Virus record (IMG/VR): IMGVR_UViG_2565956608_000009
Length of the DNA: 41,580 nucleotides
Source: a virus
Taxonomy: Duplodnaviria; Heunggongvirae; Uroviricota; Caudoviricetes
Direction: 5' to 3' (one strand)
Below the pieces are notes generated by a model that saw nothing but the letters and a program-made list of their open reading frames with translations, searched no databases and was not told the origin of the DNA. Numbering within the stretch: position 1 is the first letter of the stretch; each line of letters begins with the position of its first letter. Position numbers and translations under genes: made by a program. Below, piece by piece: positions 39,193 to 40,135 of the stretch.

Positions 39193-39492
39193 GTGAGAAA
39201 GTTAAGCCGACTTGAAAAATATCACATGAACAAGGTTTCAATGCGCAGTCCGTCAAAGATTGTCGCCGTTACTCCTGCGGCGATAGAGATCGAAAAACGC
39301 GCGATTGAAAGAGAGAAAAAAGGGCAGTTCCGCATTGCCGCCCACCTTTGGCTTCAGTGTATGGATGTTGCTTCTGGTGATGTTGAACGTGCAAGGATCG
39401 CGGTTCGCAGGGACCAATGTATCACAAAAGGTAACGGCCTTCGCCGTGGCGACTATAGCGGCATAGGATGTTGTGGGGTGGTTTATGACTAA
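39193..39492 (+). CDS. PerC/Pch-like transcriptional regulator
   Basis: 99 aa; GTG start with SD GAGGG; pattern KKGQFRIAAHLWLQCMDVASGDVERARIAVRRDQC resembles the PerC family core; moderate-confidence motif recognition. Confidence 0.45.
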   Translation: MRKLSRLEKYHMNKVSMRSPSKIVAVTPAAIEIEKRAIEREKKGQFRIAAHLWLQCMDVASGDVERARIAVRRDQCITKGNGLRRGDYSGIGCCGVVYD

Positions 39493-40135
39493 GAAATACA
39501 CACTAATCTATGCAGATCCACCCTGGGTATACCGGGACAAAGCCGCAGATGGTAATCGCGGTGCCGGTTTTAAATATCCGGTTATGAGTGTGCTGGATAT
39601 CTGCCGCCTTCCTGTGTGGGATTTGGCCGATGAAAACTGTCTGTTGGCCATGTGGTGGGTGCCAACACAACCACTCGAAGCACTAAAAGTTGTTGAAGCC
39701 TGTGGATTCCGTCTGATGACGATGAAGGGCTTCACGTGGATAAAATGTGGTAGTCGACAACCAGATAAACTTGTTATGGGTATGGGACACATGACTCGCG
39801 CCAATAGTGAAGATTGCCTGTTTGCGGTAAAGGGAAAACTACCTCCGCGCATTAATGCAGGGATCGTTCAGTCATTTACCGCACCGCGGCTTGAGCACTC
39901 AAGAAAACCAGATGTCGTTCGTGAAAAACTTGTGCAATTGTTAGGAGATGTTTCTCGCATTGAACTATTCGCCCGCCAGTCGTCTCATGGCTTCGATGTT
40001 TGGGGTAATCAGTGCGAAGACCCGGCAGTGCAACTACACCCTGGATACGCGTTGGATATTGGCGGATTAACAAATGCATTCGGCAATTCTCCGCTGTCAC
40101 CAACAGACAACCAGGGGCGGGAGCGTGCTGCATGA
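39485..40135 (+). CDS. MT-A70-family DNA N6-adenine methyltransferase (orphan)
   Basis: Start ATG 39485 (track start GTG 39473); catalytic DPPW motif in LIYADPPWVY; no adjacent restriction endonuclease gene. Confidence 0.8.
   Translation: MTKKYTLIYADPPWVYRDKAADGNRGAGFKYPVMSVLDICRLPVWDLADENCLLAMWWVPTQPLEALKVVEACGFRLMTMKGFTWIKCGSRQPDKLVMGMGHMTRANSEDCLFAVKGKLPPRINAGIVQSFTAPRLEHSRKPDVVREKLVQLLGDVSRIELFARQSSHGFDVWGNQCEDPAVQLHPGYALDIGGLTNAFGNSPLSPTDNQGRERAA

Follow-up and report, generated by a model that had tools for sequence, protein, structure and literature searches.

Independent inheritance of a PerC-domain gene and an orphan MT-A70 methyltransferase gene beside the integrase of phiV10/epsilon15-type Escherichia coli prophages

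Introduction

Do a PerC-like gene and the adenine methyltransferase gene that it overlaps, both lying beside a prophage integrase, form a unit that modulates the bacterial host, or are they separate genes of the phage? The question is raised by positions 39193-40135 of IMG/VR virus record IMGVR_UViG_2565956608_000009 (Caudoviricetes), a stretch of 41,580 nucleotides analysed here over its whole length (the window). A preliminary description of the sequence had recognised a 99-aa protein with a PerC-like core and an orphan MT-A70 methyltransferase, and had proposed that together they are candidate host-modulating cargo. We find that both are ordinary, already annotated early genes of a common phiV10/epsilon15-type Escherichia coli prophage and that they are inherited independently: the PerC-like gene is a core gene of the phage lineage, tied to the excisionase, while the methyltransferase gene is exchangeable cargo. 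The reading that we favour, with a probability of roughly 0.6, is that of two genes, independent of each other, placed distally in the early-left (recombination/excision) operon, one encoding a phage co-regulator and the other a Dam-like methylase of phage DNA. The earlier interpretation is thereby partly supported. The names given to the two products, the term 'orphan' and the cargo-like character of the methyltransferase hold, while the joint host-modulating unit overreaches.

A prophage type common in E. coli

The window is a phiV10/epsilon15-like (Uetakevirus) prophage adjoining guaA. The 1.5-kb module of the two genes is 100% identical in several E. coli chromosomes, where RefSeq names the products "PerC family transcriptional regulator" and "MT-A70 family methyltransferase". 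It shares 98.4% nucleotide identity with phage phiV10, other members of Uetakevirus (epsilon15-like podoviruses) being similar, and is carried by 559 out of 5426 complete E. coli genomes. In an identical genome, yfgI and guaA flank the prophage, and the start of the integrase gene faces guaA. This agrees with a report that ZX5, a near-identical phage, integrates at guaA (PMC9782041).

The closest known systems have the same genes in the same operon, namely PhiV10p34 and PhiV10p33 in phiV10, and gp31 and gp29 in epsilon15. Their records already annotate a PerC-family transcriptional activator together with an adenine or DNA methyltransferase, and the PerC-like protein of the window is 78% identical to epsilon15 gp31. 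Epsilon15 differs from the window in having a 35-aa gene between the two, a methyltransferase of 192 aa and, at the position of the DUF1382 gene, a serotype-conversion gene annotated 'transacetylase repressor' (locus L096, 4649-4831). No functional study of the PerC-like or methyltransferase gene of phiV10 or epsilon15 was found in the literature searched. All that was found here is already annotated in public records and, as found, is of little significance, the phage type being well known and the genes annotated in hundreds of genomes.

The PerC-like gene is fixed and the methyltransferase slot is variable

Gene neighbourhoods were compared in nine loci from other Enterobacteriaceae species, in 80 E. 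coli viral loci scored from AlpA to int, and in a phage collection. AlpA and the PerC-like gene occur in the same order, upstream of a convergent int, in all nine loci from other species, with the membrane peptide detected between them in seven and RecT likewise in seven. In 80 out of 80 E. coli viral loci, as well as in epsilon15, the genes for AlpA, the membrane peptide and the PerC-like protein are contiguous. Within the phage collection, the PerC-like subfamily was retrieved only from epsilon15-like phages of Escherichia, Salmonella, Enterobacter and Klebsiella, in 36 records that include every complete enterobacterial record with at least 80% identity to the capsid protein of the window. 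This distribution points to a lineage-wide phage protein and not to cargo.

MT-A70 genes, on the other hand, were present in six of the nine loci and never abutted the PerC-like gene, from which they were separated by one to three genes (DUF1317, DndB-like, weak PDDEXK_5-like or unknown genes). In the remaining three loci, a phage Dam of family PF05869 (E=6e-59) replaces MT-A70. This phage Dam is, likewise, a stand-alone adenine methyltransferase without a nuclease, but it belongs to an unrelated sequence family with an NPPY motif and is not homologous to MT-A70; we take M.EcoVT2Dam, from a Shiga toxin (Stx) phage, to be a member of the same family. MT-A70 is, therefore, retained or functionally replaced in all nine species loci. 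The DUF1382 gene was found in about half of the 80 E. coli viral loci, and its order with the methyltransferase is that of Stx phages.

The PerC-like and MT-A70 genes overlap by 8 nt in all 80 E. coli viral loci, and this adjacency is restricted to the E. coli lineage. Together with a lambdoid control in which PerC and methyltransferase genes were not associated (described below), it speaks against the two genes being a joint unit, as the word 'together' had implied. The term 'cargo' suits the methyltransferase, which occupies a variable slot flanked by the PerC-like gene and int (with the Dam swap in 3/9 loci) and whose Stx-phage homologue changes prophage induction and virulence (PMC10810198), but it does not suit the PerC-like gene, which is part of the fixed AlpA run and lies within the operon. 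Nothing that we found indicates that the two genes act together or on the host.

The borders of the slot are also conserved. In loci L006-L014, the gene following the PerC-like gene always starts at an ATG inside ...TATGACTAA (39485-39492 in the window), and many different proteins encoded in the slot have ...EAA or ...RERAA at their C-terminus, the start of the following gene lying in GCTGCATGA (40127-40135 in the window). These cassette boundaries look like recombination junctions for cargo swapping. Two of these relatives, L009 (4254-4832) and L014 (4319-4825), encode a protein of 168-192 aa directly 5' of MT-A70 with a sub-threshold PD-(D/E)XK_5 match (23.9 versus 26.1 bits). It may be a nuclease partner, and the orphan state of MT-A70 may then not be universal. 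The place directly 5' of MT-A70 is taken by a DndB/DGQHR-like gene in L006 and some Salmonella phages.

The PerC-like protein

Profile searches found the PerC-family similarity that had been proposed for the small protein. Its ORF starts with GTG, and the 99-aa product matches Pfam PerC (PF06069) at aa 35-80 with E=6e-7 (30.1 bits, gathering cut-off 22.6), the alignment covering profile positions 5-50 of 90 and leaving positions 51-90, the C-terminal region, unmatched. PHROG 868, 'transcriptional activator', gives a full-length match (E=6e-62). In pairwise comparisons, the protein is 40% identical over 60 aa to PerC of pMAR2 from enteropathogenic E. coli (EPEC) (BLASTP, E=2e-10) and 40% identical over 40 aa to an O157 Pch. 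The three proteins have in common a conserved core of ~50-60 aa, E-KG-YR-AA-W...D-ER...A-RR-C. The PerC-like protein extends further by 33 aa at the N-terminus, a stretch that its own homologues conserve, and is without the C-terminal third of PerC and Pch.

Besides this core, EPEC PerC and the PchA/B/C proteins of enterohaemorrhagic E. coli (EHEC), all of PF06069, share with the window protein a small helical make-up and a location on mobile elements. Their genomic settings differ: the PerC-like gene lies in an early-left operon with an excisionase, whereas PerC is encoded in perABC and pch genes occupy a lysis-terminase moron site. In the O157:H7 lambdoid prophage that we examined, the Pch gene (104 aa) had the lysis cassette on one side and the small terminase gene on the other, a typical moron position (locus L098, 1457-1771).

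The annotated start of the gene varies among records, being placed at 39241 by RefSeq PGAP (83 aa) and at 39227 in the phiV10 record (88 aa), while epsilon15 gp31 is annotated at 99 aa. We favour the 99-aa form starting at GTG 39193, because its first 16 residues are conserved in homologues of 60-76% identity, which keep the N-terminal KLxRLEKYH stretch, and because epsilon15 gp31 has the same length. Judged from these sequences, the RefSeq start is probably 16 codons too short.

A model of medium confidence predicts four helices, with a three-helix core at aa 28-80 that resembles a tetratricopeptide repeat (TPR); no homologue of solved structure was found by sequence. A search with the subfamily profile against 1.84 billion representatives retrieved only 65 clusters, which include PerC and Pch of the canonical kind, a single true TPR protein and ~140-aa proteins that join a winged helix-turn-helix (HTH) to PerC. 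The predicted fold suggests a protein-contact module and not a self-sufficient DNA binder. As a small helical TPR-like protein, it would most likely act via protein contact, in a co-regulatory or anti-silencing role towards the early or excision functions of the phage. The anti-silencer proposal is drawn by analogy with Pch, which relieves silencing by H-NS, StpA and Hha. The ANR family (AraC negative regulators, NCBIfam NF033650), which comprises small helical regulators as well, gave a weak match at aa 35-77 (E=3.4e-5); at 23.6 bits, below the curated cut-off of 32, membership of this family was rejected.

The MT-A70 methyltransferase

The methyltransferase ORF spans 39473-40135, and the likely start, ATG 39485, yields a 216-aa protein beginning MTKKYTLIYADPPW. 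It matches Pfam MT-A70 (PF05063) over the complete profile, positions 1-172 of 172, with E=2e-19 (70.6 bits, cut-off 23.9). Motif IV, YADPPWVY, is located at aa 9-16 of the 216-aa protein and aligns with the DPPW of the top PDB match, 7f4r, in keeping with the earlier assignment to DPPW-motif MT-A70 enzymes. Matches in PDB include 'MT-a70 family protein' chains (E=2e-11) and METTL3 (E~2e-4), and the PADLOC model for Type II methyltransferases PDLC03262 (MTase_II) is matched with E=1e-74. The TAA stop codon of the PerC-like gene (39490-39492) falls inside the methyltransferase gene, which accounts for the 8-nt overlap and bears out the overlap that had been described.

The enzyme also remains without a restriction partner, as had been stated. 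Pfam and PADLOC scans of the unassigned proteins of the early-left operon revealed neither a nuclease nor a defence match, and no restriction nuclease is named in the RefSeq annotation of the whole prophage. With a PerC-like protein, a DUF1382 protein and an integrase as its neighbours, the gene does not have the surroundings of a type II restriction-modification system. It is intact in 79 out of 80 E. coli viral loci, with one frameshift, and is 94-99% conserved, with DPPW kept. Since the gene is intact, conserved and retained or functionally replaced, selection rather than decay is indicated.

Over aa 1-187, the methyltransferase is 82% identical to M.EcoPA8orf6770P, the enzyme of the Stx2a phage phiPA8 and the nearest relative to have been studied. 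The reference Stx locus in our comparison (L005) bears the mutagenesis primers and terminator of PMC10810198 and is, thus, the same system. M.EcoPA8orf6770P associates 1:1 with PNB-2, which is encoded by an upstream gene overlapping that of the enzyme by 4 nt, and the complex shows a preference in vitro for 16S rRNA and 30S subunits (PMC10810198). The window shares with the Stx phage the DPPW motif and a DUF1382 gene directly 3' of the methyltransferase. It differs in the C-terminal tail (aa 188-216), the alignment stopping at aa 187, and in the upstream gene, which encodes a PerC-domain protein unrelated to PNB-2. A tblastn search for PNB-2 found none in the window, the best match having E=6.7. 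At the nucleotide level, the methyltransferase ATG is the exact point from which the window resembles Stx2a phages, and the promoter region of the Stx phage is therefore not shared. The features of the 16S rRNA holoenzyme are, thus, present in part: the window has the homologue of the catalytic subunit, but neither PNB-2 upstream nor the tail typical of Shiga toxin-producing E. coli (STEC), whose C-terminal ~27 aa have been proposed as possibly needed for the PNB-2 holoenzyme (PMC10810198). The idea that PNB-2 could be a hidden PerC-domain protein was discarded (hhalign probability 13%, no PerC Pfam match).

M.EcoGV has been called highly similar to M.EcoPA8orf6770P (PMC10810198). Over-expression in vivo is the basis on which M.EcoGV is listed among GATC DNA methylases (Fang et al. 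2012, as cited in PMC10810198), and M.EcoVT2Dam is listed as a GATC enzyme of an Stx phage. The activities reported conflict, with GATC DNA methylation in vivo versus a preference for 16S rRNA in vitro.

From these data we infer that the window enzyme works on its own as a Dam-like methylase of replicating phage DNA, because one slot takes either MT-A70 or the PF05869 Dam (non-orthologous displacement), because the Stx-phage reference enzymes are listed with GATC, and because an MT-A70 gene adjoins a Lar restriction-alleviation gene in one lambdoid context. Such a swappable adenine methyltransferase would most likely methylate phage DNA during replication, probably at GATC, and the methylation would protect or mark that DNA. 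Depletion of GATC was considered as a clue to specificity and dropped, its observed/expected ratio of 0.77 being unremarkable among 4-mer palindromes. If MT-A70 targets GATC, lysogens that show no additional methylation motif would tell nothing about the enzyme, since this site is already methylated by host Dam. An MT-A70 enzyme 82% identical to a claimed prophage rRNA methyltransferase, but unaccompanied by PNB-2, occurs in about 10% of the complete E. coli genomes, and the window enzyme is, in this respect, a natural test case for the DNA (GATC) versus rRNA question.

PerC domains and methyltransferases in lambdoid prophages

The ~140-aa proteins with a winged HTH and a PerC domain (PHROG 1324) are also early-region phage proteins. 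Unlike the window protein, they carry an N-terminal winged HTH, and their genes lie directly after the replication gene of lambdoid prophages (60 out of 79 RusA-anchored loci) rather than in an excision module. The PerC domain, including the NGLRRGxYSGI-like stretch that follows it, aligned with these proteins at an hhalign probability of 98.9% (E=2.6e-17). Six out of eight contexts contained MT-A70, a D12-class Dam or a PF05869 Dam, adenine methyltransferases of three unrelated families, just downstream, and 31 further loci looked similar.

A conserved module of PerC and adenine methyltransferase was nevertheless rejected. A methyltransferase was present in 40 out of 60 PerC-positive RusA-anchored loci (67%), compared with 16 out of 19 PerC-negative ones (84%), and clustering of near-duplicates left counts of 15/11/13/3 (odds ratio 0.31, Fisher p=0.18). 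This control shows that both genes are common residents of the region, so that their adjacency in lambdoid prophages is positional. The fused winged HTH was also tried as a homologue of AlpA, which would have provided a 'Rosetta stone' link between PerC and AlpA, and was discarded on sequence grounds, with an hhalign probability of 0.3%. Downstream of the winged-HTH/PerC genes there is often a 38-40-aa ORF together with a gene for a ~435-aa ParB-type HTH protein, the latter frequently 5' of an MT-A70 gene.

PerC-domain proteins are, thus, common early-region proteins of temperate enterobacterial phages, which bears on how the virulence regulators of EPEC and EHEC arose. The PerC domain may have begun as a phage-development module, a TPR-like adaptor working with an HTH protein, with the stand-alone PerC and Pch copies of EPEC and EHEC exapted from it. 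We hold this tentative proposal to be doubtful; it stems from the fusion to a winged HTH after the replication genes in lambdoid phages and from the translational coupling of a separate PerC-like protein to AlpA and the 38-aa peptide in epsilon15-like ones. If it were correct, the epsilon15-like PerC protein would help control excision or the early-to-late switch.

Operon organisation and expression

Both genes probably belong to the repressed early-left operon. Their surroundings (Table 1) follow the order of the uetakevirus early-left excision module, with RecT, AlpA/Xis, the small membrane peptide, the PerC-like gene, the variable slot and a convergent P4-type integrase, an order identical in phiV10 and epsilon15; the location near the integrase had been correctly noted. 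The equivalent of the AlpA-family gene in epsilon15, gp33, is annotated as an excisionase. All junctions from AlpA to DUF1382 overlap: the AlpA stop with the start of the 38-aa peptide (ATGA), the stop of the peptide with the PerC-like start (GTGA), the PerC-like gene with the methyltransferase (8 nt) and the methyltransferase stop with the DUF1382 start (ATGA). The exonuclease stop overlaps the RecT start, a gap of 49 nt separates RecT from AlpA, and the other junctions of the chain are overlapping or near-abutting.

A consensus scan of the plus strand from 36000 to 40330 found no sigma-70-like promoter or terminator. Because of this result and the overlapping junctions, we consider the genes to be probably co-transcribed from the early-left promoter beside the repressor gene. 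Such co-transcription would in turn mean repression in the lysogen, which is the weakest step of the argument. Both proteins would then be made on infection or induction and not in the quiescent lysogen. The GC content across the operon region is host-like (0.46-0.54).

Table 1. Genes at the integrase end of the window, with the evidence for each assignment
Feature	Coordinates	Strand	Evidence and remarks
PD-(D/E)XK recombination exonuclease	37086-37907	+	Pfam DUF3799 (PDDEXK-like) E=1.6e-22; RefSeq: PD-(D/E)XK nuclease-like protein
RecT-family single-strand annealing protein	37904-38785	+	Pfam RecT E=4.8e-31
AlpA-family HTH protein, probable excisionase/regulator	38835-39083	+	Pfam Phage_AlpA 24.2 bits (cut-off 21); PHROG 66 'excisionase and transcriptional regulator' E=2e-16
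Predicted membrane peptide, 38 aa	39080-39196	+	PHROG 17484 'membrane protein' E=2.6e-27; annotated in phiV10 and epsilon15
PerC-domain protein, 99 aa	39193-39492	+	Pfam PF06069; alternative starts annotated at 39227 and 39241
Orphan MT-A70 (beta-class) N6-adenine methyltransferase, 216 aa, DPPW motif IV	39485-40135	+	Pfam MT-A70; open frame from GTG 39473
DUF1382 protein, 64 aa	40132-40326	+	Pfam DUF1382 E=1.8e-30, 105 bits; start overlaps methyltransferase stop (ATGA)
P4-type tyrosine integrase	40330-41580	-	Pfam Arm-DNA-bind_3, Phage_int_M, Phage_integrase; convergent with the operon; start at window end, by guaA

Alternative explanations

Several points weigh against two phage-serving proteins in a repressed operon. 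The roles proposed for both are derived from sequence and context. Short helical bundles match many folds, and the TPR-like call depends on a model of medium confidence, while the H-NS anti-silencing role is extrapolated from Pch, with which the protein shares ~40% identity over 40 aa only. The promoter scan was a crude consensus search that a weak or non-sigma-70 promoter could escape. The Stx-phage homologue of the methyltransferase has a promoter of its own that is active in lysogens; it increases spontaneous induction and is almost without DNA methyltransferase activity in vitro (PMC10810198). In epsilon15, a lysogenic-conversion gene lies by the methyltransferase, so this end of the operon can carry genes that are expressed in the lysogen. 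Finally, the invariant 8-nt overlap in E. coli phages is compatible with coupled expression of both proteins.

Among the other explanations, it is unlikely that both genes are lysogen-expressed cargo acting on the host, the PerC-like protein activating LEE1/ler of the enterocyte effacement locus (LEE) or other H-NS-silenced islands and the methyltransferase altering the host methylome or host expression. Such a role would fit a protein that passes the Pfam PerC threshold and whose core aligns with PerC and Pch, given that PerC and PchABC activate LEE1 and that PerC also alters metabolism and fimbriae. It would also fit the variable, moron-like methyltransferase slot, the LEE-positive O157:H7 host of phiV10, and the increased serum survival conferred by the related prophage phiv142-3, although the study of that prophage assigned its host effects to other genes. 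However, the PerC-like gene is a fixed lineage gene within an operon rather than a moron with its own promoter, no promoter-like site having been found, and its product combines the missing C-terminal third of PerC/Pch with the added N-terminal extension. Only some Pch paralogues are known to activate LEE1, most module-bearing genomes are of pathotypes that are not LEE-positive (for example, a healthy-carrier isolate, avian pathogenic E. coli and IHE3034), and a GATC enzyme would add nothing to the methylome of a Dam-positive host. Moreover, lysogeny by ZX5, which has the same module (97.9% identity) and integrates at guaA, was without effect on any host phenotype tested, namely growth, biofilm, stress response, adhesion and virulence (PMC9782041). 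Neither the ZX5 nor the phiv142-3 paper studied the PerC-like or MT-A70 gene. The Gally prophage of strain LF82 was considered as a further comparison and set aside as P22-like and irrelevant.

We also consider it quite improbable that MT-A70 is a 16S rRNA methyltransferase like M.EcoPA8orf6770P/PNB-2 that tunes spontaneous induction, with the PerC-like protein replacing PNB-2 as its targeting subunit. The high identity to the characterised catalytic subunit over aa 1-187 is what this explanation would predict, and the Stx partner of the 1:1 complex is encoded immediately upstream with a 4-nt overlap, much as the PerC-like gene overlaps the methyltransferase by 8 nt in all E. coli loci. In addition, the PerC core resembles a protein-binding TPR-like fold, and the tail at aa 188-216 differs from the Stx tail proposed for the PNB-2 holoenzyme. 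Against it stand the absence of PNB-2 from the window and its lack of relationship to PerC-domain proteins, as well as the other genera, which keep the PerC-like gene without MT-A70 (3/9) or with one to three genes in between (6/9). Phage Tyrion has the same long-tailed methyltransferase, which does not lie beside its PerC-like gene; this case also weakened the idea that the tail co-varies with an adjacent PerC-like gene. No PerC/MT-A70 fusion was found among the 1.84 billion representatives, the two matches longer than 160 aa containing FIVAR/DUF4972 and TPR repeats, and in lambdoid loci a PerC gene did not predict an adjacent methyltransferase. As for the methyltransferase being one half left over from a restriction-modification or DNA-modification cassette, kept only as a neutral remnant, the PD-(D/E)XK_5-like protein of L009 and L014, the DndB/DGQHR-like gene of L006 and Salmonella phages, and the PADLOC assignment to Type II methyltransferases could be taken that way. 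We judge it very improbable for a gene that is intact in 79/80 loci, 94-99% conserved with its DPPW, and retained or replaced in 9/9.

Other features of the prophage

Two early-left proteins encoded 5' of the exonuclease (344 aa, 35748-36782; 99 aa, 36790-37089) had no Pfam or PADLOC match. Antisense ORFs in the region of the two genes were without a family match, as was the region itself in an Rfam search. In strain SCU-116, a 2.4-kb structural gene of the same prophage is a RefSeq pseudogene with an internal stop (locus L003, 20764-23235), and that copy may be defective. A tRNA-Arg gene (anticodon TCT) is located at 27393-27469, between the structural and packaging genes of the prophage.

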